From UHGV virus genome UHGV-0367640: a stretch of DNA of 26,496 nucleotides; one strand, written 5' to 3'. Origin of the DNA: a virus. The notes below the pieces were generated by a model, which was not told where the DNA came from, made no database searches, and saw nothing but the letters and a program-made list of their open reading frames with translations. Position 1 is the stretch's first letter. Each line of letters starts with the position of its first letter. This document shows, piece by piece, positions 804 to 26,290 of the stretch. The position numbers and the translations under genes were made by a program.

Positions 804-2003
804 ATGGTCGTGAGCGTTTTTATGTTTGACTTGACGTTTATTATCTTTATTTTATCTTCCATCCCTGTATTTTTTGTTTTTTGGATTGCCGGAAGGTTTA
901 AGAATGAATTAGTTGCAGACTCTTCTTTTGGATTGCGAGGTGATGACAATTTATCTTGCCTCAGGGGGTTGGCGGCTGTCATGGTCGCCCTTCACCATTC
1001 AGTATATATGTTCAATTATCTTTATCATGATAAATGGAGTATATTTTTGAATGATGGATTTGCGGCGAAGTCAAGCAACAATAGTTTATTGGCCATTGCA
1101 TATTTTGGCTCCATTCCAGTCATGATATTCTTTATGATTACAGGGTTTCTCTTCTTTAGAAAAATAATAAACAAACCAATAAACAATGCTGCAATATTTT
1201 TGTCGGCGCGAGTTAAGAGACTAATTCCAATGTATGCATTCATGGTGCTTTGCGTTGTTTGTGTTTCTGAATTAATTCGACCCAACGATAGCATTGGGAT
1301 TCACAACATTATTGTTGAAGTTGGCCGATATTTTACGTTTGGTATAATTGACCCTAATGGCCTTACACCTTCTATTCATGGATCTTTAATCGTTGGCGGG
1401 GTTATCTGGACTCTTGCATATGAGTGGGGTTTTTATATAATTTTACCATATATCTCTATGTTCGTAAAATCAATAAGAGATGCATGTTTTTCGGTAATAA
1501 TTATGCTTTTCTCGGTATTAATTGCTTACCGCCAAGAGCTTATCAGTGAAATGTTTGCCACTCTTCTCTTTTGCTTTATTGGTGGCTTTGTTGCAGCGCT
1601 AGCTTCTGGTTACCTAAAGAACAACGCTATCAAACAAGCCAATAGCGTAATGATGACAATTGTGTACCTTTTATCGCTTATTGCTGTCGCATACTGGCAG
1701 GACTTTAACATTTACAATGTTTACATAGTGATTCCGCTATTTTTGTTTTTTTTAAGTGCGTGTACTGGCTCCAAAGCTTTTCAAATTATAAACACCAAGT
1801 TCTTCAAGGTGGCGGGTTCTGTAAGTTACAGCATTTATTTGATGCATGGCTTAAGCATGGTAATGACCTTTAATTTCATTTCAAGCTCATTAAACTATAC
1901 TGAGTTTGCAGCAATATCTTTATCAATTTGTGCAATGATAAGTTGCTTAACTTACTTATACATTGAAAAACCCGCAATGAAAAAACAGTTTAAAAACAAT
2001 TAG
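804..2003 (+). CDS. Integral-membrane acyltransferase, acyltransferase-3 family (O-antigen/LPS O-acetyltransferase-like lysogenic conversion gene)
   Basis: 399-aa very hydrophobic multi-pass ORF with an N-proximal LRG-LAAVMVALHH motif typical of acyltransferase-3 enzymes; AT-rich by eye; convergent with the tail fiber assembly gene. Start uncertain: ATG 804 or ATG 822, no clear SD; a TATAAT at about 793-798 would favour a downstream start. Confidence 0.7.
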   Translation: MVVSVFMFDLTFIIFILSSIPVFFVFWIAGRFKNELVADSSFGLRGDDNLSCLRGLAAVMVALHHSVYMFNYLYHDKWSIFLNDGFAAKSSNNSLLAIAYFGSIPVMIFFMITGFLFFRKIINKPINNAAIFLSARVKRLIPMYAFMVLCVVCVSELIRPNDSIGIHNIIVEVGRYFTFGIIDPNGLTPSIHGSLIVGGVIWTLAYEWGFYIILPYISMFVKSIRDACFSVIIMLFSVLIAYRQELISEMFATLLFCFIGGFVAALASGYLKNNAIKQANSVMMTIVYLLSLIAVAYWQDFNIYNVYIVIPLFLFFLSACTGSKAFQIINTKFFKVAGSVSYSIYLMHGLSMVMTFNFISSSLNYTEFAAISLSICAMISCLTYLYIEKPAMKKQFKNN

Positions 2004-2046: not shown

Positions 2047-2478
2047 TTAAGCTGGCTTAATAGGCCATTCTATGTCGGGAGCCTTGGTAACATTAATAGC
2101 TTCCAATTCATCAAGATAATCCAGCCATGCACCATACTGATATTTTTCATCATTACGGAGCCGACCCATAGCCGCTTTTCCAGGCCATTGCTTGCTGTTC
2201 ATGTTAGAGTTGGCCTGTTCAATAAGAATCTGCCTCTTGCGTTCTGCTGCTGCTACCTGCTCATCATGAGTTAGTGCTGGTAGTTCACCCCATTCCGGAT
2301 AACCATCTTTTCCAGCGATGCGGACCTTCCCAGTTGGCGGTTCCTTTGTATATTCTGTAAATATATCTTCGTCACATTCAACACCATCAGTAGGCCAGCA
2401 ATTTCCAGAAATATAATCTTCTTTCATTGATGTTGGATAGAAAGCGTTATTTATTGCACTGTACACATATTTTTCCAT
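2047..2478 (-). CDS. Tail fiber assembly protein (Tfa/gpG-like chaperone)
   Basis: 143-aa ORF directly downstream of the tail fiber gene (3-nt spacing); size and sequence character typical of Tfa chaperones; ATG at 2478. Confidence 0.65.
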   Translation of the reverse strand: MEKYVYSAINNAFYPTSMKEDYISGNCWPTDGVECDEDIFTEYTKEPPTGKVRIAGKDGYPEWGELPALTHDEQVAAAERKRQILIEQANSNMNSKQWPGKAAMGRLRNDEKYQYGAWLDYLDELEAINVTKAPDIEWPIKPA

Positions 2479-2479
2479 T

Positions 2480-3175
2480 TTATTTACCTATAGCTATCCA
2501 TCGACAATAAGTTGTATTGCTACCTGATGGCTGGGAACCCATTAAGCTAAAACCAAGACCGGTACTAACGGGTGTAGCAGCAAAAGAAGGAATTGAATTT
2601 ACTGCAGATTCCGCATTATCATACGACACAACAATTTGCACGGTTGAGTAGTTGGTAAATGCAATGGGGAAATTTATAAAAGTGGGAGATCCAATCGCTC
2701 CTGCCACTGAAACACCACGTTGAAAGATAGTTCCATCAGGGTAACGACACCAGCCATTTCCACTTGTAAAGCTAGACATGTCAGGAATTTGATTGGTGCC
2801 GGTCCCTACATTTCTTTTAGCCGCTTCTCCCAAACCAAGGTTTTCGAGAGCCGTTGGTACCGTGCCGTCCGATTTGATATCACCAAACGGATTATTGCGG
2901 CTCAGGTATTCAACAGCAAACCCCGATCCCAGCAATTCAACAAAACCGGGCAGATCACCATTATCAAGCACATCCCGTTGCGTTTTATCACTTACAAACT
3001 GGGCCAGAGCTGCAGCAATAAAGCTGGCCTGCCGAATAACCTTATTGACTTGCGCACTGGATGCTTTCCCTGCTGTAAATCCGGATATAAGCGCAGGCAA
3101 CGCTTCCCATTCCTCCTGCGACATAACATTGGCATTTCGATCAGTTGCAAACGCTTTAAAGTCATTTTTCGCCAT
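2480..3175 (-). CDS. Tail fiber protein (short side fiber)
   Basis: ORF after the baseplate genes, N-terminus MAKNDFKAF... typical of enterobacterial phage fibers. Start chosen at ATG 3175 (ATGA overlap with upstream stop, GGGGAG about 10 nt upstream) rather than ATG 3193 of the ORF track. Confidence 0.6.
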
Positions 3176-3855
3176 CAGAGTAATACTCCCCATGCCCCTA
3201 CATCAAAACCACTGATGAATTCGTTATCCATATCAAAACCAAAAAATTTAGAGCCTTCCGATGGAGTTTCCACCGAAGGTGTTTCAATGCCCCCCGCCCA
3301 TACCCCGGCGGCTTTTACTGTTAGATACCCCTGTTTAATTGCCGCAATTAACTCACGCGATACATCTGAAATATCAGTATCAGGAAAGACCCAGACCGAT
3401 ATCGTCATGTCCTGGTTATCGACTATCTGCATTCGCAGCCCGGATCCTGCTGTTGCAGCGTCAAGAATTGCTGGAAGCGAATCATTCCGTCCGTCCCAGT
3501 TATTAATCGCAATCTTCGCTTTAAGGATGACACGATAAGTTTCATCGCTGAGGTACATGTATCCGGAATCAGGATCGTATGGCCCCTGCCATACACCCTG
3601 ATCATATCCAAGCCCGTCGGTATCCCAGCTGAAATAGACACCTGAGATAGGCTGGCTGACAACACGGCTACGTCCGATCCACAATCCCAGAATGTCAAGT
3701 TGCACACCAACCGCAGAGTCAATATCAAATGCAGTAATCAGCCCTCTGGTGGCCGCCGCAACATCAATAAGCGGCCGGGTCATCAGATCAACATGTGCAA
3801 GAAATTTAGGTTTGGTGGCGTGGTAGTTCGTGATTAGTTCGGTATATTTGCTCAT
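3175..3855 (-). CDS. Baseplate/tail protein (Mu gp48-like position)
   Basis: 226-aa ORF between the baseplate J-like gene and the tail fiber gene; ATGA overlap at both ends; product assigned by position and size. Confidence 0.5.
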
Positions 3856-5051
3856 GACTCCACCGTTATAACGATATTTTCCGGTGTACAGGACGCAGAT
3901 TCGTTGTATCTGATATCAATGTTTGATGACGACAAAGCCCCCGGGGATTTCCCAATCGTCAGTTCCTGAATATCGTAATAGCGTGCATTCCCGCCACTCA
4001 CCACGCCAAGATTCGCCGGTGAGTAAATGCGACTTAAAAGGACCGAATCACCAATCATCAGACTATTGATATAGTCGGAAATAGCCTGCTGGATCTGCTG
4101 CCCTATCTGTGAGGTATAACCCGTAAAAACTTTTAATTTAATCCGGGCATAAACAGGCACATCACTAGAGCGCGAGAATTTGATTACATGGGGATTGCCG
4201 TATTTATCCGGAACCGTAACGGATGTTGTACCGTGAGTGGATGTCCCCTGGCCTTTATTCCCTCTGATAGCCTGAGCAATATCCGTCACATCACCGCCAT
4301 CCACAATTACAGCAACAGAGTGTGGCGGTAACCCGTTACCGTCCTCCGAACCAGTATCGTTTTCATAGAGTTTGTGGCGGGTTACACCGGCAACATTAGA
4401 AACAGCACCATCCAGTGCTTCAAATGGGGTTATTGATGGCAACGCAACACTTTGCGACTGACGGATACGTAACTCCGCATCAGTTTCTGCCGGAGTGCCC
4501 ACAGTGGCTGCAGCAGGATTGGTTACCGAAACCCAGCCACGGGTTGGTGTATTAATTTCAGTGATAGTTCCAGCCAGCGCCGCCACTGCACCACTGACGG
4601 AACATATTGCGGTCACCATCACTGTACCATCCACGCCGACCACCACTGAAGCAGGCAAACGCCATATCACATTATTACTGTCTTTCACGCTGCCATTAAT
4701 GATGGTTGTTCCGGCAGTTCCTGTAAGAAGCAAATCAACCGTAGAGTTCGTCGCGCCTTTACGTGAAATACCATTTATTTTCACGTTACTGGTCAGTGCA
4801 ACCCCATAGCCGGTTGCCGGTGAAAAACAGTTGTAGACAGTTATCGCCATATTATTGGCATCATGAATCGCCAGCGCCATCAGAGCCACCATCTGGCCGT
4901 CTTTGCTGTCCGGTTCGAGGTAGGCATCACTGCCATAAATCTGCTGAAAATAGCTAATCAGGGTGCTGAGTATCGTCTGATAATCAGGCGCACCGATCCC
5001 CTCCGCGGTTACCTTTGCAGATAAACCGAGAGAATCAAGGTTCAGAGCCAT
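3852..5051 (-). CDS. Baseplate J-like protein (Mu gp47 / P2 gpJ family)
   Basis: 399-aa ORF, size and position typical of baseplate wedge J-like proteins; translationally coupled to neighbours. Confidence 0.65.
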   Translation of the reverse strand: MALNLDSLGLSAKVTAEGIGAPDYQTILSTLISYFQQIYGSDAYLEPDSKDGQMVALMALAIHDANNMAITVYNCFSPATGYGVALTSNVKINGISRKGATNSTVDLLLTGTAGTTIINGSVKDSNNVIWRLPASVVVGVDGTVMVTAICSVSGAVAALAGTITEINTPTRGWVSVTNPAAATVGTPAETDAELRIRQSQSVALPSITPFEALDGAVSNVAGVTRHKLYENDTGSEDGNGLPPHSVAVIVDGGDVTDIAQAIRGNKGQGTSTHGTTSVTVPDKYGNPHVIKFSRSSDVPVYARIKLKVFTGYTSQIGQQIQQAISDYINSLMIGDSVLLSRIYSPANLGVVSGGNARYYDIQELTIGKSPGALSSSNIDIRYNESASCTPENIVITVES

Positions 5052-5404
5052 TACGCCTCCGATGTAACAGTCGTTATTCCATAGAGAGTGTCGATTTCAG
5101 CGGAAAACATGACACGTCGGGTCGTGGTATCCACCGTCGTATTGAAAGAGAGGATTGATTTAACGCCCCGCGTTTCGAGGATGCGCTTACGGACGGCCAG
5201 GTTGTAGGTTTCCGGCTTCTGCTTACCGAGTACGGACTGGATCCACGGAGTCCCCTCGGTGGTGTCGAGAAACCATTGCCCATACCACAATTCGAATCGC
5301 GTTTTTACCGCCTGTGCCACGGCATCCGGTGAGTTAATCAGCCAGGTGTCATCACCGCTGCCAAAGGTGTAATCGCCATCGGCGTCTTCACGTCTGTATC
5401 GCAT
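5051..5404 (-). CDS. Small baseplate protein (Mu gp46 / gpW-gp25-like)
   Basis: 117-aa ORF between spike-like and J-like genes; ATGA/TAATG coupling. Confidence 0.5.
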   Translation of the reverse strand: MRYRREDADGDYTFGSGDDTWLINSPDAVAQAVKTRFELWYGQWFLDTTEGTPWIQSVLGKQKPETYNLAVRKRILETRGVKSILSFNTTVDTTTRRVMFSAEIDTLYGITTVTSEA

Positions 5405-6156
5405 CAGTTTACCCCGTCGGTACTGCTTCCACCGCGCTGAACACCACCATGAGTGTGCGTATTATCGATTGGCTTGCCGTTAGCCTTCACGCTACCCAAA
5501 AACTCAACAACACCAGTGATTTTTGAAGCCACACCAGAAACAACAGACCCCACCATGCCCCCCATCCAGGTTAACAGGCCATGAATGGTTACTTTCTCAG
5601 AAAAATCAGCCAGAGGGGCAACCACATCAAGACCACCCGGAGCGACAATTTTAATTTTCCTGGTATCAGGATTAAGCTCAAAATAGGTGCTGCCATCGTC
5701 ACTACGCAACTGTGTGGCACTGGTATTAATACCGCTAATCTTCCTCGCCTGCGACTGGGGGCCTACAATACAAAACGCATCCGATAAATCATGCATTCTG
5801 TCATCGACCGGTTCCTGTATTCCGCCGCTCTGCCACCAGAAATCAATACAACGATCGGCAAAAACGACAAGACACTCATCCCCGGCTTTAATCGGAAACG
5901 TTAGCGTACATCCTCCGCCACGTGGGAATACCACTGGAACATCCACCAGCAATGGGTAATTTTTGGTAATGCGGTTGCCGTCATTATCCTTTTCAACCGA
6001 ACGGATAGCAGGCTGCACAACCGCCGTCACCGCATCAGGATCGAATGACTGAATAATGCCAGGCAAGGCGACTCGGATCTGATTCTTTGTTGTTTCCCGT
6101 TCAGATTTGAATGTTTCGGCAAGGTCGCCGCTGCGGGTCTGGTCAGATACTGCCAT
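5404..6156 (-). CDS. Baseplate assembly protein V / spike-like (Mu gp45-like)
   Basis: ORF with Gly-rich C-terminal region; start refined to ATG 6156 (GGAG 8 nt upstream) instead of TTG 6177 of the ORF track. Confidence 0.55.
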   Translation of the reverse strand: MAVSDQTRSGDLAETFKSERETTKNQIRVALPGIIQSFDPDAVTAVVQPAIRSVEKDNDGNRITKNYPLLVDVPVVFPRGGGCTLTFPIKAGDECLVVFADRCIDFWWQSGGIQEPVDDRMHDLSDAFCIVGPQSQARKISGINTSATQLRSDDGSTYFELNPDTRKIKIVAPGGLDVVAPLADFSEKVTIHGLLTWMGGMVGSVVSGVASKITGVVEFLGSVKANGKPIDNTHTHGGVQRGGSSTDGVN

Positions 6157-6174
6157 TTGGTAGGCTCCAGAAAG

Positions 6175-6204
6175 CAAAAAACCCGCCGAATGGCGGGTTT
6201 TGTT
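6175..6204. terminator. Rho-independent terminator (bidirectional)
   Basis: AAAAA-AACCCGCC-GAAT-GGCGGGTT-TTTGTT: perfect 8-bp GC-rich stem, 4-nt loop, A-run and T-run flanks; 17 nt downstream of the stop of the 131-aa gene. Confidence 0.7.
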
Positions 6205-6220
6205 AATTCACTGAATGAGT

Positions 6221-6616
6221 TTAAACAGCTTCATCAGTCTTCATTTTTTCCCACTGAGAAAAAATAGTCTTAACCTCTAAGAGAGATTGCTGTGCCATTG
6301 CTTTATCTATTGCACAGCTAGTGAGGTCATAATCTGCTTCATTTCGAGCCAGTCTCTGTTGCTCAAGTTTGTAAGCCATGGATTTTAGGCTTAATGGATC
6401 ATATGGCTCCAGTTTGTTTTCACTCTTATTTTTAAGATAAGAGATAAGACTGGAATGATGATCCTTCGTATAAGCAGGAAGACTGGTCAGATTCTCTTTT
6501 ATTTCATGGTAAAGCGCATAATATGCCCGCGAAATAGTATTACGATAACCAACTTCAGAATCCTCCGCAAAGCAACGCTCCGCTGAAGATAAAAACTCAG
6601 AGCTAGTTATAGGCAT
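6221..6616 (-). CDS. Small HEPN-like protein (putative toxin/RNase-fold component of an accessory cassette)
   Basis: 131-aa ORF, ATG 6616 with AAAGGGTG RBS about 5 nt upstream; overlaps the upstream gene by 14 nt; N-terminal ...ISRAYYALYHEI... resembles the conserved helix of classical HEPN domains and fits Rx6H; AT-rich by eye. Fold assignment is by motif only. Confidence 0.45.
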   Translation of the reverse strand: MPITSSEFLSSAERCFAEDSEVGYRNTISRAYYALYHEIKENLTSLPAYTKDHHSSLISYLKNKSENKLEPYDPLSLKSMAYKLEQQRLARNEADYDLTSCAIDKAMAQQSLLEVKTIFSQWEKMKTDEAV

Positions 6617-7373
6617 ATTTACACCCTTTCAAGCTATTTCTTTCAACGGAAAAACGTGCAATAAGATTGCAATCATCAAGTAAATCGATTGAACAAATTT
6701 CATCTGCAAGTCGCATATTCATTGCAACCACCTGTTCAGGGGATGCATTAACTACCTCAACCAGATAAGTCCCACCAGATGCACCGTTGATGTCAGCACG
6801 ATATTCAGTTGGAGGGAATTCAGCCATGACTCTATGAACAGCAAGAGCAACTTGCATGTATTGTTCTGAAGAGCATCCTGACTTTTTGTATGCTTCATCC
6901 ATATCGTGAATTACCTCCTGCAAGAAGGCTTCTGCGTCATCCCTATGTTCTTCTTGGGATAACATTTTGCAATGACGTCCAAAATATTCTACGCATTTTG
7001 ATAGTTTCCCTACCAAATACGCAACGCCACCAGCCCTATAAGTAAACCACTTGGTTGGATACTTATCAGCTAAAGAATAGATGTAGTAGTCCGATTTTTC
7101 GAGTAGAGAAAAACGCTCAAGCAGCTTACAAAAAATCCGCGCAAAGTTAACATCAGCATGTGGGAGGATAGCTTCAAGCATTTCAATCCCGACACTCACA
7201 TCACCTTTAGCAATATGAGCCAAAGCTACAAGCGTGTCAGCAGGCGGAGTACGCTTAGAGCCATACTCCGAGACCACCTCTCGAAAGGTCCAAATATCAA
7301 GAGGTTGACCACTATTGATTATCTTAACCAACTGGTCAAAACGCTCTTCCGCTTTCAGTTTTGGTCTTGCCAC
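6603..7373 (-). CDS. Hypothetical protein, first gene of the accessory two-gene operon
   Basis: 256-aa ORF, apparent GTG start at 7373 about 23 nt downstream of a predicted sigma70 promoter; no motif recognised; AT-rich. Confidence 0.55.
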   Translation of the reverse strand: MARPKLKAEERFDQLVKIINSGQPLDIWTFREVVSEYGSKRTPPADTLVALAHIAKGDVSVGIEMLEAILPHADVNFARIFCKLLERFSLLEKSDYYIYSLADKYPTKWFTYRAGGVAYLVGKLSKCVEYFGRHCKMLSQEEHRDDAEAFLQEVIHDMDEAYKKSGCSSEQYMQVALAVHRVMAEFPPTEYRADINGASGGTYLVEVVNASPEQVVAMNMRLADEICSIDLLDDCNLIARFSVERNSLKGCKYAYN

Positions 7374-7402
7374 AGTACGCTCGCTACTTATCTTTTGGTT
7401 GA

Positions 7403-7432
7403 ATTTTATGTTCGCGTATACAGTTTAGTCAA
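7403..7432 (-). promoter_or_regulatory. Sigma70-like promoter for the two-gene cassette
   Basis: On the minus strand TTGACT (7432..7427), 18-bp spacer, TAAAAT (7408..7403), about 30 nt upstream of GTG 7373, in the only sizeable intergenic gap of the tail module. Confidence 0.45.
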
Positions 7433-7464
7433 TCCGAAGCTCGTGCTGTTGAGCCGTTTCGCAC

Positions 7465-7488
7465 AAAATCATCCTTGCAAAAAGGATG
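7465..7488 (-). terminator. Weak hairpin plus T-run after the secreted-protein gene
   Basis: Minus strand CATCCTT-tttgc-AAGGATG followed by ATTTTG, immediately after the stop at 7494. Confidence 0.3.
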
Positions 7489-7493
7489 GGACT

Positions 7494-7835
7494 TCAACCA
7501 TCAACCTTTTTACACGGGAAAGATCCGATGATTTTCGGTGCATCCATGCTGTTCTGCAGAAGCTGGACGTTCAGGAAACGCGTTTCGGTGCCAGGGCGAC
7601 GAATGTATTCAAAGCCATAATTGTTGCCATCTTTAGCAGGCATAAGCCCCATATCAATCTTAATGCCATCAGCACCAAGATTTGTAATTTTCTGCGATGT
7701 GACGCGTTCACCGTTAATCATGTCCATTTCACCCAACCTTGCAGTGATGGTGTAAGGCCCACAATAAGCGGTGTACCCGCTTGCTGATGCCCCAAATGAC
7801 ATAAAGGCAACAATTAAAATGGCTAAGGCTTTCAA
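7494..7835 (-). CDS. Small secreted (signal-peptide) protein of unknown function
   Basis: 113 aa; N-terminus MKALAILIVAFMSFGASA|SGYT is a type-I signal peptide; two Cys in the mature part; TTG start at 7835 with GGGGG about 5 nt upstream, no in-frame ATG before an upstream stop; 2 nt after the hub gene stop. Confidence 0.5.
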   Translation of the reverse strand: MKALAILIVAFMSFGASASGYTAYCGPYTITARLGEMDMINGERVTSQKITNLGADGIKIDMGLMPAKDGNNYGFEYIRRPGTETRFLNVQLLQNSMDAPKIIGSFPCKKVDG

Positions 7836-7837
7836 AT

Positions 7838-8899
7838 TTACCCCCGATTAAGCGAGTCCTGAGTGCGGAGATCCGCCGCGCCACGCGCTTCGCACATCAT
7901 ATCCATGTACCACGCCTGGCCCCTTGTATCGCCAGTGTACATAATCCCGCGCACAATATAAACGCCATCCGTTGCGATGCTGGCAGGTTGTGCTGTGGTG
8001 CCGCTTAGCGTGATATTTCCGTCCGTGTTCTGGTCGGTGATCTGACCACCAGCCATCGCAATATCGTTGTTCGACAACGCGGTACGATAGACGGAAGCCT
8101 GATCCAGCTGAATGAGCCCGTTAACCCGGATGTTCGGATTAATAAGAGCGCGGACGTTTACGCCGTTGCCGATGGTCTGCTGCGGCATGCCGATAAGCCC
8201 GGTGGCGCTGCTGAGCACAATCGCGTCGTGAACATACTCGTTATTCGCCACCATCTGGCGCTGACCGTCCACAAATTGCCATGTTGCGCCACATTGTCCG
8301 GCCACGTTATCCATAAGATGCCGTGTCATGCCGAACAGCACCCGCCCTCGAGGGAATACGGTAGCAGGCATTTCAGGCGTCAGTCCTTCGGTCGCGCCTT
8401 TGGCCTCAAAGTCTTTCATCAGCGCACGGTTCACATCTGCGACCGTGTAACCGGCCGCCAGCGTCTGCGAGGTTATACTGGTGGCAAATGCCAGATCCGT
8501 ATCTGCTGCCTGAATCAGGACATAGGAATCAATAGGGCTGTCTTTTCCTGTGACCGAGTAGCGAATTTCTCCGCTGAAAATCAACCCGTAGTTGCGGCCA
8601 TCACTCTGGCCCACATCTGCCGCGTCGACTTCGCGCACGGTCACGACGTCGCTTGCCGCCACCTCCGGCGCGATACCGTCGTAACCGGCAATCAGCCGCA
8701 CTTTCGAAAACTCCTGCCCGGTAATTCGGTTCACAGTATCTGCCGAGAGGTTATAAATTTTGATAGTTCCTACCCGGGACGCGCTGCTGATGTTGAACCA
8801 GTCGATCGTAAAGGTGACTTTGAAATCACTTAGCTCAATTCCCTGACCGTTCCCGTCCACAAGCTGCAGCTCGAAATGTCTCATCCAGTTCTGTGACAT
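7838..8899 (-). CDS. Baseplate hub / late-control-D-like tail protein (Mu gp44-like position)
   Basis: 353-aa ORF, ATG 8899 with GGAG 5-6 nt upstream; product by position and size. Confidence 0.5.
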   Translation of the reverse strand: MSQNWMRHFELQLVDGNGQGIELSDFKVTFTIDWFNISSASRVGTIKIYNLSADTVNRITGQEFSKVRLIAGYDGIAPEVAASDVVTVREVDAADVGQSDGRNYGLIFSGEIRYSVTGKDSPIDSYVLIQAADTDLAFATSITSQTLAAGYTVADVNRALMKDFEAKGATEGLTPEMPATVFPRGRVLFGMTRHLMDNVAGQCGATWQFVDGQRQMVANNEYVHDAIVLSSATGLIGMPQQTIGNGVNVRALINPNIRVNGLIQLDQASVYRTALSNNDIAMAGGQITDQNTDGNITLSGTTAQPASIATDGVYIVRGIMYTGDTRGQAWYMDMMCEARGAADLRTQDSLNRG

Positions 8900-8901
8900 G
8901 C

Positions 8902-9204
8902 TTACTCCGTTGATACCAGTAAATGACTGCGACCGCCCAGATCAGTTTTCGTGGGATAATCCTGAGTGTTGTCATCGCAGACCACCACCAGCTTAAAACC
9001 AAGCCCCATACAGGCGTACTGCGCCAGCAGATCAGCGCCAGTGACGAGAGGAATACCGGAGATTACCGGCTCTCCTCTGTCGTTCTGCAGGTCCATAATC
9101 CAGTAAGGATCGCGCCATATGATGCTAATCTGCCAAGTGACACCACCCAGGACGATGCTGAACTGCTGGTTGTCCGCTGTCAGCGGAATTTCCTGAATTG
9201 TCAT
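8902..9204 (-). CDS. Small tail/baseplate-associated protein
   Basis: 100-aa ORF, TAATG coupling with the upstream gene. Confidence 0.45.
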   Translation of the reverse strand: MTIQEIPLTADNQQFSIVLGGVTWQISIIWRDPYWIMDLQNDRGEPVISGIPLVTGADLLAQYACMGLGFKLVVVCDDNTQDYPTKTDLGGRSHLLVSTE

Positions 9205-9791
9205 TAGCCGCCTCCCAGTAATGACGCCACGTTACCCGTAATGCTTTTCAGCAGTGAAGTATCTGGAGGCTTTGTGGTTTTGTTGCCGCTGTTCTGTACC
9301 GCCGACGTGCTGGCCCCTTCCTTCATGTTGGTTTTATCCGCGACGGTAATCTGCTGTGTCCGGGAGATAATGACCTCCCTCAGGGTGAGGACGGCGGACA
9401 GGACGTTTTCGGTTGTCTTGTCCGTCGTCACTTCCAGCGCCCGGATCAACATGTTGCTGTACAGCCGTTTACCGGTTACCACATCGAAGGGGATACGGCT
9501 TTCCTGCAGATCCAGTAGCTCCTGATACGTCTGCTGAGGACTCAGGCCGAGCAGGCTGGTAGCCGTCAGATTACTGGCAAAATCCAGCAATGCGCCGCCA
9601 CCGGCGAAACCAACCTCCATCACCACTTCTGACGGTTTTTTATAGGCATGATCAGCGACAGCGGCCCCGACCTCTACCGGATGCTCTGTTATTTCAAGCA
9701 TATCTGTATGCTTCTCTGAAATAACAACACTGGGAACAATCATTCCTATTTTTCTGCTCTGCTGATGAAAAAGTGTAGAGAGAATATCCAC
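9204..9791 (-). CDS. Tail protein downstream of tape measure
   Basis: 195-aa ORF with GTG start overlapping the tape measure TAG stop by 1 nt. Confidence 0.45.
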   Translation of the reverse strand: MDILSTLFHQQSRKIGMIVPSVVISEKHTDMLEITEHPVEVGAAVADHAYKKPSEVVMEVGFAGGGALLDFASNLTATSLLGLSPQQTYQELLDLQESRIPFDVVTGKRLYSNMLIRALEVTTDKTTENVLSAVLTLREVIISRTQQITVADKTNMKEGASTSAVQNSGNKTTKPPDTSLLKSITGNVASLLGGG

Positions 9792-22527: not shown

Positions 22528-23079
22528 TTAGCCCATCATTTTTCTATACGCCTCTGCAGCCTGCTCCGGCGTTAAGTTGGTAATTTCTGTTCTGACTGGT
22601 CCTCCATCAGCGCCAGTCACTTCATTTTTGACGTTGTCTTTAAACGCCTGAACAGAAACATGACGCCCAAGCAACTCAAGGTTTTTAACCTTATCAGGCC
22701 ATTTGATTTTCTTCAGAAGTGCGGCGCTATCTGCGGATACCATCTCCACGACATCCATTCCTGATAGCGTTGTGCGCCATACCTTAGGCCAGTCTTTAAT
22801 GGGTTTTAGCTCACCGTTTTGCAGGAGAATGTCGAGCACATCCATCTGGTCGATTTCAAGAAGGCGATTAAGTACGTATTCTGCATTTATTCCAACAGAG
22901 TCATTGCGTTGTGCTTTCAATTCGGAGATTCTGAATTGTATGTCAGGTTTTGACATGTTTTCGGACGCAGTACGGTTGGCTGTCTTTGCGCTGTACCCCG
23001 CCCGAATAGCCGCTTGCGTGGCGTTTAAATCGATGAGGTACTCGCGACAGAACATTTCTTGTTTGTCAGTGAGCGCCAT
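22528..23079 (-). CDS. Terminase small subunit
   Basis: 183-aa ORF, N-terminus [30 protein letters not shown] typical of small terminases; ATG 23079 with AGGGGA 5 nt upstream. Confidence 0.8.
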
Positions 23080-23106: not shown

Positions 23107-23631
23107 ATGAATCCTGAAATTTTTGAATCAAAGTTCATAATGAACGAAGCAACTTGGCAACGAATTGAAAGGTTAGTAAATACTGAAGATGATATTGGTT
23201 TGGTTTTAAGAGTACATCTGATTACAGAAGCAATGATTGAGGCATTTTGTTGCGCCGCTGTAGGTAACCAAAATCTATTTGATGGATTTGGTGAAAACTT
23301 AACCATGACCTATGCCGCAAAAATTCAGCTAGCTGCCAACCTCGGCCTAAATGAACACTCCGTCGCAGAACTTAAACGCCTAAATAGAATAAGAAATGTT
23401 CGCTCTCATCAAATAGACAACCCGGAAATAACTGACGCAGAAATTGAATCATTACGAACATTTATTAGCCGAGGTGGTCAGGAAGATCTCATTAACTCAG
23501 CAAGATTCGGCATAAAAGTTGGAGACATTGAGCTGAATCTTAACCGTCCAGATGCCAATAATCGTGAAAAATTCATAGCTATTCTTGGCAGCATCATCCT
23601 AAGGCTCACTAAACAAGTTGCAGGACAATAG
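23107..23631 (+). CDS. Hypothetical accessory protein with HEPN-type Rx4H motif (candidate abortive-infection/defense gene)
   Basis: 174-aa plus-strand ORF, ATG 23107 with AAGG about 9 nt upstream, divergent from the small terminase start 27 nt away; motif LKRLNRIRNVRSHQ contains RNxxxH. Confidence 0.55.
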   Translation: MNPEIFESKFIMNEATWQRIERLVNTEDDIGLVLRVHLITEAMIEAFCCAAVGNQNLFDGFGENLTMTYAAKIQLAANLGLNEHSVAELKRLNRIRNVRSHQIDNPEITDAEIESLRTFISRGGQEDLINSARFGIKVGDIELNLNRPDANNREKFIAILGSIILRLTKQVAGQ

Positions 23632-24212
23632 AGATCATTGACTGAGCTAATTGATTGTTTTAGCGCATAAACCTATACCACAAAATAGCCACTTATCACG
23701 CTTCATCATTCAATTCTGGCGTGAACTGTATGCGCCTCACATTGTCGGGAGAGAAATACAGTCACTCTCCCGTCTCGATCACAAGCGGCACAAAGCCGTT
23801 AACCAACTCATGCTGAAATCGTGACGTCTTGCTCGTAACGGTTTCGCCTGTTTGGGTGGTTAACGTGATTTGGTAGATGTTGGACATTGAGAATCTCTTT
23901 ATCCGCTTGTGGGGATATCAGTTAAGTTATCCCGTGTAGGGTATAAGCCATTGTCGAGACCACTCATTGAATGGACTCTGCAATAACCGATGTCTTTCCA
24001 TCAGTCCGCCACCACAAAGAATCTTTTTTGCCATAAGGCAGGAGGTTCATCTTTCAGTGGCTGCCAGTGTTATTTCCCCACTTACTGGCTTGGGTTGCTT
24101 CGCGGTACTGCCGTAACTGGTTACCCAGAATAAATTCCGGTTTCATTATCAAGCCCACCCGTAAATGGGCTTTGTAATGAAGAGTTGTTATGAAAATTGC
24201 TCTAAACAAGCA

Positions 24213-24701
24213 TTAATAGCCATCAGAAGTAATCGCTACAGATTTCAATCCCTCAATGTCATCCTTGGACAGGGCGAACCATTCACCGTGCTTTCTCTTT
24301 GCGGCAAATTTGCGATGAAGCATGTTTTCAGTTTCTCTTCCACCAGGGATCAGGCACTCAAGCTTCAAGCAGTCTGGTCCAGAGTTGCCAAGCGATTTGA
24401 TGCGTTGTGGAATGTTGGATGAATACCCAATTTTGGTTAGCCCAGTTTTCTTCGATGACAAAACGTATACCTGAGGAGGTTCTTTTCTCTGGTCTTCCAT
24501 TACACGTCTCATTGTTGCCATAAGTCCGCCGTGCATCAGCATTTCAACAAAGAACGCTGACCGAACACCTGACGACTTAAGCATGCCAGAAAATTCACTT
24601 GCCAATTCCATTAACTCTGCGATGTTTTCAGGAACTTTTTGGCAGTTATCTTCCTTGTATAAGGAAATCATTCTTTGAAGCTTTTCTTCTAATTGGTTCA
24701 T
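24213..24701 (-). CDS. T5orf172-domain protein (GIY-YIG-like superfamily)
   Basis: C-terminal half VYVLSSKKTGLTKIGYSSNIPQRIKSL...HGEWFAL matches the T5orf172 signature; start placed at internal ATG 24701 (AAAGG RBS about 10 nt upstream) rather than 24857 of the ORF track. Confidence 0.6.
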   Translation of the reverse strand: MNQLEEKLQRMISLYKEDNCQKVPENIAELMELASEFSGMLKSSGVRSAFFVEMLMHGGLMATMRRVMEDQRKEPPQVYVLSSKKTGLTKIGYSSNIPQRIKSLGNSGPDCLKLECLIPGGRETENMLHRKFAAKRKHGEWFALSKDDIEGLKSVAITSDGY

Positions 24702-25042
24702 AGCGTCTTTACCTTTTAGAAAGTGAGCCTGTCTCACAGAAAAGCCGCCCGAGAGAGGTTGCCACCTATAACGGCATTTCTCAGGCTCACTTACTGAAAG
24801 GCTCTCGTTAATATGCGCGTGAGATGCGCGGTTTACTGCAGATGTAAAAAGCCCCACAAATGCGAGGCTAAATCCTGGTATTTGTAATGACTGGCTCTTA
24901 TCTCAACGCGGCCCCTTACCGCGCGCCAGATGCTCAATCTCAAGCATCAGCAATGAGATGTTTAATCTGGATTCACTCCAGAAGTGATCACCACCCTGTC
25001 TACAGAGCCAGATGTGAAGGATGATGAGTAAAATTATCGCTA

Positions 25043-25510
25043 TCATCGAAGGCATTGCGTCCTGATGTATTCCTGAAGCGTTCTCAGTGCTGTTTGGTCG
25101 CGGATAATTCCGTCCCGGACACCGAGAACGTTTCGTCCAGCAACTGGAGAGAGTTCGACGGTGGCATCATTGCCCATGCCGGAGGCGCTGGAGGCTTCGG
25201 CTGAGGATGGCACAGGGCATTTTCCTTTGACGAACACCCGACCACCATTATCAAGCTTGCGCCGAAGAGCATCATTTTCAGCTTTCGCATCAGCTAACTC
25301 CTTCGTGTATTTAGCATCGAGTGCATCAGCAGAACGCTGGCGCTGCTGCATGTCAGTAATGGTGGCGGTCGCCTGCTTCAGCTCACTGACTTTTTTATCG
25401 CGCTGCTCTTTGTAGGCGATGGCGTTATCACGGTAATGATTAACAGCCCATGACAGGCAGACGATGATGCAGATAACCAGAGCGGAGATAATCGCGGTTA
25501 CTCTGCTCAT
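25043..25510 (-). CDS. Rz: i-spanin Rz
   Basis: 155-aa ORF with N-terminal TM segment, closely resembles lambda Rz; ATGA overlap with R. Confidence 0.85.
25084..25290 (-). CDS. Rz1: o-spanin Rz1 (lipoprotein, embedded in the +1 frame of Rz)
   Basis: 68-aa ORF wholly inside Rz; [19 protein letters not shown] lipobox followed by Pro-rich [11 protein letters not shown], as in lambda Rz1. Confidence 0.8.
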
Positions 25511-25983
25511 GCCTCAATCTCTCTGACCGTTCCGCCTACTTCTTTGAATTTTGCAATCAGGCTGTCAGCCTTATGCTCGAACTGACCATAACCAGCCCCC
25601 GGCAGTGAAGCCCAGATATTGCTGCAACGGTCGATTGCCTGACGGATATCACCGCGATCAATCATCGGTAAAGCGCCACGCTCTTTAATCTGCTGCAGTG
25701 CAACAGCGTCCTGGCTTTTCGGAGAGAAGTCTTTCAGGCCAAGCTGCTTACGATAGGCATCCCACCAACGGGAAAGAAGCTGGTAACGTCCGGCTGCTGT
25801 TGATTTGAGTTTTGGGTTTAGCGTGACAAGTTTGCGAGGGTGATCGGAGTAATCAGTGAATAGCTCTCCGCCAACAATGACGTCATAACCATGATTTCTG
25901 GTTTTCTGCCGTCCGTTATCAGTTCCCTCTGACCACGCCAGCATATCGAGGAACGCCTTACGTTGATTATTGATTTCCACCAT
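25507..25983 (-). CDS. R: Endolysin R (lambda-type lytic transglycosylase)
   Basis: 158-aa protein matching lambda R nearly residue for residue as I recall it ([24 protein letters not shown]...). Confidence 0.9.
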
Positions 25984-26290
25984 CTTCTACTCCGGCTTTT
26001 TTAGCAGCGAAGCGTTTGATAAGCGAACCAATCGTGTCAGTACCGATGTAGCCGATGAACACGCTCGTTATATAAGCGAGATTGCTACTTAGTCCGGCGA
26101 AGTCGAGAAGGTCACGAATGAACCAGGCGATAATGGCGCACATCGTTGCGTCGATTACTGTTTTTGTAAACGCACCGCCATTATATCTGCCGCGAAGGTA
26201 CGCCATTGCAAACGCAAGGATTGCCCCGATGCCTTGTTCCTTTGCCGCGAGAATGGCGGCTAACAGGTCATGTTTTTCTGGCATCTCCAT
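25967..26290 (-). CDS. S: Holin S (lambda class I holin, dual-start)
   Basis: 107-aa protein near-identical to lambda S as recalled; two in-frame ATGs (Met1 at 26290, Met3 at 26284); the upstream leader matches the lambda late leader. Confidence 0.9.

Follow-up and report, generated by a model that had tools for sequence, protein, structure and literature searches.

A mobile gene pair for a predicted HEPN-fold protein and its TPR-like partner at a cargo hotspot inside a phage baseplate operon

Why should two AT-rich genes interrupt the baseplate genes of an E. coli prophage? The question is raised by UHGV virus genome UHGV-0367640, a stretch of 26,496 nucleotides (nt) that we analyzed at its full length and refer to as the window, in which a cassette of two minus-strand genes, A and B, lies between the genes for the baseplate hub and the baseplate spike. 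An initial annotation had proposed that the cassette is an accessory insert, probably a toxin-antitoxin (TA) or defense pair. We lean, with slightly better than even confidence, toward a scenario in which it is a mobile two-gene module of temperate phages whose putative HEPN ribonuclease (RNase) effector, B, and sensor or antitoxin partner, A, would together abort superinfection.

An obligate and mobile gene pair

The two overlapping genes of the initial annotation were confirmed, and they and their accompanying signals are as follows.

6603..7373, minus strand: gene A, 256 amino acids (aa), GTG start, acidic (isoelectric point [pI] 5.5); candidate regulator, sensor, or antitoxin
6221..6616, minus strand: gene B, 131 aa, ATG start; predicted HEPN-fold protein of the PF05168/UPF0332/"HEPN-T" type, AF0298-like; putative RNase effector
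6603..6616, minus strand: overlap of the A stop and the B start, 14 nt, ATGCCTATAACTAG, with a Shine-Dalgarno-like AAGGGTG 5' of the B start
7403..7432, minus strand: sigma70-like promoter, TTGACT (7432..7427), 18 nt, TAAAAT (7408..7403), about 30 nt 5' of the gene A GTG
6172..6201, minus strand: intrinsic terminator hairpin, AAAACCCGCC-ATTC-GGCGGGTTTT plus a T-run, stem 6201..6178, directly 5' of the ribosome-binding site (RBS) and ATG (6156) of the spike gene
7470..7488, minus strand: weak terminator-like hairpin, 7-bp stem with three GC pairs, just 3' of a 113-aa open reading frame (ORF) and 5' of the promoter

The overlap and the AAGGGTG before B suggest that the two genes are translationally coupled, and the pair has the layout of a type II TA locus, with co-directional, overlapping genes and the presumed antitoxin upstream and acidic. 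Loci of the pair were reached independently from homologues of A and from homologues of B, and in all 15 that we examined both genes were present in the same order, with nearly constant lengths (256 to 271 aa for A, 123 to 133 aa for B). Of 14 diverged loci, 13 have an overlap of 11 to 20 nt. The pairwise identities of A and B covary (r = 0.88; Mantel P ~2e-4), and in 99% of comparisons it is A that has diverged more. The two genes thus form an obligate unit.

Compared with the allele of a Salmonella prophage (L006), synonymous divergence (dS) is 0.80 for A and 1.01 for B but ~0.04 in the flanking genes, an excess of ~20-fold in the cassette, and the ratio of nonsynonymous to synonymous divergence (dN/dS) is 0.079 for A and 0.055 for B. 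The low dN/dS values and a cassette dS far above that of the flanks together indicate strong purifying selection and a history separate from that of the phage backbone. The cassette is also compositionally distinct, as had been noted from the outset: its GC content is 0.411 versus 0.506 in the 3-kb flanks, some 10 GC points poorer, and ranges from 0.38 to 0.41 across the pair compared with 0.48 to 0.55 in the adjoining tail genes. The pair is AT-rich in every locus in which it occurs, and a terminator-like hairpin follows B in 9 of the 10 loci inspected.

The putative promoter sits in the 120-nt gap 7374..7493. It reads as initially annotated and, with a score of 10/12, tops the six promoter-like sites in 5000..9500; over both hexamers the Salmonella allele shares a 33-nt block without a mismatch, even though coding dS is ~0.8 to 1.0. 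Since shuffled sequence contains as many such sites, the case for a promoter is one of position and conservation, not of statistics. The weak hairpin at 7470..7488 might shield the cassette against transcription from upstream. Within the promoter spacer (7409..7426) we also observed CTGT-N8-ACAT, which resembles a LexA box (CTGT-N8-ACAG) but departs from it at the critical G; the Salmonella allele has this element unchanged, and at its other sites the pair was not preceded by it.

Across bacteria and phages, the pair was found at the following sites.

Hub-spike site: E. coli, Salmonella, Rosenbergiella, Yersinia enterocolitica, Citrobacter, and a metagenome
Upstream of the tape-measure gene: Yersinia pekkanenii (between the tail chaperone and tape-measure genes) and a Klebsiella phage
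Gap between lysis genes and terminase: lambdoid prophages
Beside the integrase: lambdoid and P2/186-like prophages
Between Q and holin: Serratia
Between frr and a major facilitator superfamily transporter gene: Gilliamella, in a chromosomal islet with no phage genes in view

In all, the 15 loci occupy one chromosomal site and prophage sites of six kinds, the latter being classical accessory positions of temperate phages.

Two of these records deserve comment in their own right. Among 50,697 phage genomes, A has a homologue (30% identity) in one record only, that of Klebsiella phage ST405-OXA48phi1.3 (L034; MK416008.1). This phage encodes at 4252..4647 an intact B of 131 aa, with all its key residues kept and a 17-nt overlap, which the GenBank annotation splits into two small hypothetical ORFs. 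In Salmonella GCA_026711365.1 (L009), a segment running Dit-plug-hub-153-aa ORF-A-B lies between two copies of a 234-aa insertion sequence (IS) transposase (rve/DDE_Tnp_IS240) and adjoins a Tn3-family transposase, and the remainder of the tail module has the opposite orientation. The arrangement reflects an IS-mediated rearrangement in which the cassette became isolated together with part of the baseplate genes.

The products of genes B and A

The initial annotation had picked out two segments of B as reminiscent of HEPN proteins, and profile and structure comparisons bear out the HEPN fold. B is modeled as the four-helix, up-and-down bundle of the HEPN fold; PF05168 is matched by 5 of 11 close relatives of B (best E = 2e-6); several relatives have been assigned to PF05168 by precomputed annotation or are named "UPF0332 family"; and a profile of the B family finds AF0298 (2hsb) in the PDB at E = 0.022, plus two entries called "HEPN domain-containing protein." Of the two segments, LARNEADY proved to be the true equivalent of the canonical motif position. 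Where canonical HEPN proteins carry Rx4-6H, at helix 3's end and the start of helix 4, B reads R88-LA-R91-NEA-D95-Y96, with no His, and its R91, D95, and Y96 align with R-EES-D-Y of AF0298 and R-NRS-D-Y of 9xbd. The other segment, ISRAYYALYH, had been matched to Rx6H. It is present and its R30 and H37 are invariant, but R30-x6-H37 lies on helix 2, the wrong structural position, and is instead a family signature, sRAYYAxxH.

Across 14 loci diverged to ~30% identity, 12 residues of B are invariant beyond the start Met: E21, R25, R30, Y32, Y33, H37, H54, Y60, E70, R91, D95, and Y96. The connector of helices 2 and 3 reads D52-H53-H54, with H53 usually present alongside the invariant H54, and B fits the HEPN-T pattern of a retained R, D in place of H, and a connector His. 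Anantharaman et al. (2013; PMC3710099) described D in place of H in both PF05168 "HEPN-T" (AF0298-type) and AbiV proteins and proposed that a conserved His between helices 2 and 3 completes an alternative active site in this AF0298/AbiV-like group. AbiV has been reported as an rRNA-degrading RNase toxin (2026 review, PMC13064643), which means that the noncanonical site is capable of activity in one related group at least. The RX4HXY motif of Class I HepT/MntA (DUF86) was found neither in B nor in any B relative. PF05168/HEPN-T is the closest family for B, with the predicted fold and motif pattern in favor of membership, although the window protein itself fails the Pfam model.

The partner, A, was suspected from the start to be novel, and it indeed belongs to no described family, with no significant match in Pfam, NCBIfam, or PADLOC and no sequence match in the PDB. 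Its structure is modeled confidently as a TPR-like helical array (residues ~4 to 185), whose paired antiparallel helices superpose on TPR arrays, followed by a small C-terminal beta-beta-alpha-beta domain (~191 to 243), the profile of which, taken alone, had zero PDB matches at E<=10. The Pfam TPR repeat is not matched by the window protein; 2 to 3 of 26 family members match TPR_1, TPR_2, or TPR_14 at E values of 1e-3 to 3e-3. PHROGs assigns A to phrog_17809, function unknown. An exhaustive hidden Markov model search of 1.84 billion representatives returned 62 A-family proteins at E<=1e-3, most of them 250 to 270 aa long with about a dozen shorter matches (71 to 147 aa), and a search for related loci with the closer alignment matched only one species-representative genome. 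A is acidic in 14 of 14 loci (median pI 5.0, versus 7.3 for B), its only invariant residues beyond the start Met are L85 and G122, and no polar residue is conserved; we read it as a nonenzymatic binding protein.

In "Class II HEPN/MNT" modules, the PF05168 HEPN protein serves as the toxin and is paired with a PF01909 minimal nucleotidyltransferase (MNT) (Yao et al. 2020; PMC7641770). We rejected an MNT identity for A: no PF01909 match was found, GSX10DXD is absent from 13 of 14 A proteins (the remaining one being a chance match), and the modeled fold is not that of a nucleotidyltransferase.

In the scenario that we favor, A and B would be transcribed in the lysogen from the cassette promoter and translated in a coupled fashion. 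Acidic, nonenzymatic A, standing in for the MNT antitoxin, would bind and restrain B, and the faster-evolving repeat surface of A would sense a phage-derived trigger. The RNase, thereby released or activated, would cleave RNA through R91 of R-N-x-x-D-Y and the connector His (H53 or H54), an AF0298/AbiV-like site, so that translation would stop and infection by the superinfecting phage would be aborted. The prophage HEPN systems HepS and Tha show that such logic exists.

Several observations weigh against this scenario. The model of B is only moderately confident (predicted local distance difference test score, 75), and Foldseek returned no significant match for it. The window B reaches no Pfam threshold, its matches being subthreshold only, and does not match PF05168 at E<=1; the canonical Rx4-6H is absent, its His included. 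The connector His of AF0298 aligns to H53, whereas the invariant residue is H54, a one-residue ambiguity. In PADLOC-DB v2.0.0, B matches HEPN_IX only (E = 1.7e-4 to 9e-3), which is a superfamily-level assignment, and no meaningful match exists among 26 members of the A family. No helix-turn-helix, ribbon-helix-helix, or AbrB domain, as would serve antitoxin-like DNA binding of type II, was detected in A. In 7 of 14 loci, among them every hub-spike locus other than that of Citrobacter, the start codon of A is GTG or TTG, and B starts with ATG in 13 of 14; one would not expect so weak a start for an antitoxin that should be in excess. Shuffled sequence yields about as many promoter-like sites (5.6) as the region itself (6). 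Finally, we know of no report of RNase activity for the AF0298-like HEPN-T proteins themselves.

B might instead be an inactive HEPN protein acting as a nucleotide- or RNA-binding adaptor that, with its TPR-like companion, serves the phage in a nontoxic capacity such as counter-defense, regulation of lysogeny or induction, or host modulation. We consider this quite unlikely. Polar and aromatic residues that stay invariant at ~30% identity (R91, D95, Y96, H37, and H54 among them) look more like those of an active site, RNase activity has been reported for the related AbiV group, and the promoter-like site, terminator, and AT-richness of the cassette match morons expressed from the lysogen.

A cargo hotspot between hub and spike

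The pair had been placed between the hub and spike genes. That position is correct, with the amendment that a further ORF of 113 aa lies there too, and the surroundings read as follows.

7838..8899, minus strand: baseplate hub gene, upstream flank outside the cassette; phrog_196 baseplate hub, E = 2e-88
7494..7835, minus strand: 113-aa signal-peptide ORF between hub and cassette, directly 3' of the hub gene; phrog_3443, function unknown
6190..7850, no strand: variable cargo segment (113-aa ORF and A/B cassette), from the identity profile against Salmonella prophage L006
5404..6156, minus strand: baseplate spike gene, downstream flank; PF18352 N-terminal spike domain (1.4e-44) and Apex motif

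Identity to L006 is 0.92 to 1.0 in the flanks; 7850..7490 is unrelated and 7440..6190 is ~0.84 identical, with one break at ~7850 and the other at ~6190, where identity leaps from ~0.8 to between 0.98 and 1.0. The 113-aa ORF is part of the variable segment: it is 35 to 97% identical in relatives and is swapped for an unrelated 153-aa ORF in Salmonella prophages and for an HMG-box protein in one E. coli. The SEN34 copy of this ORF is apparently annotated too short (77 aa, compared with a 111-aa match).

The hub/spike region was matched in ~353 of 5,426 complete E. coli genomes, of which 10 carry the cassette. Enteropathogenic E. coli E2348/69 carries it in a prophage that adjoins tRNA-Arg and intS. 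Related phages and prophages with 95 to 99% identical hub and spike hold other cargo at the site, in keeping with the accessory insert initially proposed. The alternative cargo comprises the following.

vB_EcoM-689R2: 170-aa ORF
SEN34: 138-aa ORF
Yersinia phage YP3 (L003), 2380..3180: 266-aa weakly TPR-like ORF, with no HEPN gene beside it
Other E. coli: YafO-family toxin with a 190-aa upstream gene
Further cargo: DUF2335, DUF4282, and an HMG-box protein

The YP3 ORF was considered as a relative of A and rejected (BLASTP E = 6). The hub-spike interval has the hallmarks of a moron or cargo hotspot: a promoter-like site, a terminator, deviant GC content, and presence/absence and cargo swaps among near-identical phages.

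The hairpin that the initial annotation assigned to the cassette is a strong terminator 3' of the pair, folding at -20.8 kcal/mol (z = -4.2; 0 of 200 shuffles equally stable). Its ownership, by contrast, needed revision. The stem (ACCCGCC/GGCGGG), T-run, and spike RBS also precede the spike gene in 6 of 7 relatives with other cargo (L001, L002, and L023 to L026), Yersinia phage YP3 being the sole exception, and the terminator is therefore a feature of the hotspot boundary and not of the cassette. Its 4-nt loop differs between loci (ATTC, ACCC, TTCG-like, GGAT), and outside the hub-spike site the pair is followed by different terminators. It may mark a recombination boundary. With so strong a terminator inside the baseplate operon, late transcription must read through it.

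This distribution bears on whether A and B are conserved baseplate or tail-assembly components or chaperones, a reading to which we give next to no credence. It could appeal to relatives whose hub and spike are only 41 to 62% identical to those of the window and in which the pair nevertheless holds the hub-spike position, with cassette divergence roughly tracking backbone divergence. Phages with 95 to 99% identical hub and spike, however, lack the pair and carry unrelated genes, only 10 of the 353 E. coli loci have it, and the cassette dS is ~20 times that of the flanks. In Y. pekkanenii, the hub and spike genes are adjacent and the pair sits elsewhere in the prophage. Neither A nor B resembles a structural protein, the modeled folds being TPR and HEPN. 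The pair also occurs beside integrases, between Q and holin, in the lysis-terminase gap, and at a nonprophage chromosomal site; this presence at classical accessory positions and nontail sites, together with the relatives that hold other cargo, led us to reject a structural or assembly role.

The same hotspot bears on a second alternative, that the pair is a plain TA addiction module in which a HEPN toxin and its 256-aa neutralizer stabilize the prophage or its cargo site by postsegregational killing with no antiphage role. Coupled genes with a larger acidic partner upstream and HEPN downstream suit addiction just as they suit the superinfection-abort scenario, the YafO-family toxin pair occupies this very site in other E. 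coli, and PF05168 HEPN is the toxin half of the Class II modules. We nevertheless judge it unlikely. The pair lies almost always at prophage accessory sites, with no plasmid location seen, although the plasmid collection itself was not searched; the more rapid evolution of A relative to the effector and the exchange of cassette alleles at the hotspot both fit conflict-driven turnover better; and for mere neutralization a repeat protein of 256 aa is large. Addiction and defense are not mutually exclusive roles.

An Rfam scan of 5900..8000 gave weak, terminator-driven matches only and a repeat search of the cassette found nothing, and there is thus no sign of a type I or type III RNA antitoxin.

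The flanking genes had been described as a Mu-like tail module, which was not borne out. The tail module matches Salmonella phage SEN34 and E. coli vB_EcoM prophage-type phages, and the hub gene reaches PF22759 (E217_GP41) in Pfam at E = 7.8e-5 and 22.5 bits, under the model's 27-bit cutoff. The spike start is likely the ATG at 6156 and not the TTG at 6177, and RefSeq annotates the product as a 250-aa membrane-puncturing spike protein.

Further accessory genes may be scattered through the window. Beyond the tail-fiber assembly gene and on the opposite strand, 804..2003 (plus strand; GC, 0.34 to 0.38) encodes a 399-aa Acyl_transf_3 protein (E = 2e-22) that looks like a lysogenic-conversion moron of the O-antigen acyltransferase type; a metagenomic locus (L013) has a similar acyltransferase gene at the equivalent place. 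The AT-rich stretch 23107..24857, which has the small terminase subunit (22528..23079) on one side and the lysis genes (Rz, 25043..25510; holin, 25967..26290) on the other, may be another accessory region, containing a plus-strand 174-aa ORF without a Pfam match and a 214-aa T5orf172/MUG113-domain protein.

Regardless of what the pair does, a cargo hotspot bordered by a conserved terminator is defined within the baseplate operon, and it extends beyond those ~353 E. coli genomes to prophages of Salmonella, Citrobacter, Yersinia, and Rosenbergiella. Such cargo sites are productive for mining new defense and lysogenic-conversion genes.

Comparison with known systems

Taken alone, the pair is a typical uncharacterized prophage accessory module that does not overturn expectations; our scenario for it is testable and should not surprise specialists in phage defense. 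A bolder proposal, which we offer only tentatively, is that it represents a new antiphage family, a class II HEPN RNase whose MNT has been exchanged for a TPR-like restrainer and phage-protein receptor, and that the hub-spike interval is an undescribed defense hotspot. If so, the cargo of this interval, present in ~6% of complete E. coli genomes, would be worth screening (the 170-aa ORF, DUF2335, DUF4282, HMG-box protein, and YafO pair). If the pair works as in the scenario that we favor, it would provide the first functional handle on the AF0298-like HEPN branch in bacteria, show that beyond AbiV, too, the noncanonical HEPN active site functions as a nuclease, and add a further example of an immune effector swapping its regulator, here from MNT to a repeat-protein sensor. 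No description of the A/B pair or of the hub-spike hotspot was found in open-access literature text, nor were the RefSeq accessions of the E2348/69 proteins found in the papers searched or in the DefensePredictor supplements, and A and B do not both match the models of any one system in PADLOC-DB v2.0.0.

The closest relatives in kind are the Class II HEPN/MNT modules. B is of the same subtype, with AF0298/2hsb as best structural match, PF05168 in its relatives, R-x3-D-Y, and the connector His, and the pair likewise consists of two genes with the partner upstream and overlapping. The partner differs: in place of GSX10DXD and a nucleotidyltransferase fold, A is predicted to have a TPR-like array and a small alpha/beta domain, and the failed MNT test rules out the pair as a HEPN/MNT system. 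Because A is not an MNT, AMPylation-type neutralization is not expected, even though the motif-adjacent Y96 is still invariant. Class II modules are, moreover, mostly archaeal or chromosomal, whereas the A/B pair is prophage cargo in Enterobacterales.

AbiV of Lactococcus (type III TA; PDB 9bj5) is a protein of ~200 aa whose control involves an RNA antitoxin and SaV, a phage protein. The partner of B is instead a protein, with no repeat or RNA family found in the cassette, and B has no detectable membership in the AbiV sequence family. HepS of Salmonella Gifsy-1 (PMC13043305) and Tha of Staphylococcus aureus prophages (PMC11087260) are single-protein HEPN abortive-infection systems. They resemble the pair as HEPN cargo of prophages, presumably expressed from the lysogen in our case as well, and differ from it in that a single protein both senses and cleaves, whereas sensing in the A/B pair would fall to the separate TPR-like protein.

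AbiU2, LA2681, and DS-28 likewise combine a small HEPN protein with a partner of ~250 aa that is either a helical-repeat protein or of unknown type. In silico, AbiU2 has a Sel1-repeat neighbor and LA2681 is fused to or neighbors TPR (PMC3710099, Table 1), and DS-28, a 163-aa HEPN protein with a 252-aa unknown partner, is a replicated defense system in the supplementary tables of DefensePredictor (PMC13092281). All three belong to other HEPN families and, unlike B, bear the canonical Rx4-6H. An identity of the pair with DS-28 was considered and rejected: the gene order is opposite, the partners match at a BLASTP E of 0.9, and the hhalign probability for the HEPN proteins is 0.1%.

With respect to its location, the cassette recalls the P2/P4 hotspots (PMC9122126, PMC13586616) and the lambdoid morons, in which AT-rich, self-contained cargo is swapped at a fixed site with core genes around it, and the pair itself also sits beside the integrase of a P2/186-like prophage. 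Unlike those hotspots, the site that we describe lies within the baseplate operon of SEN34-like myovirus prophages, in the order hub, cargo, spike, with a terminator before the spike.

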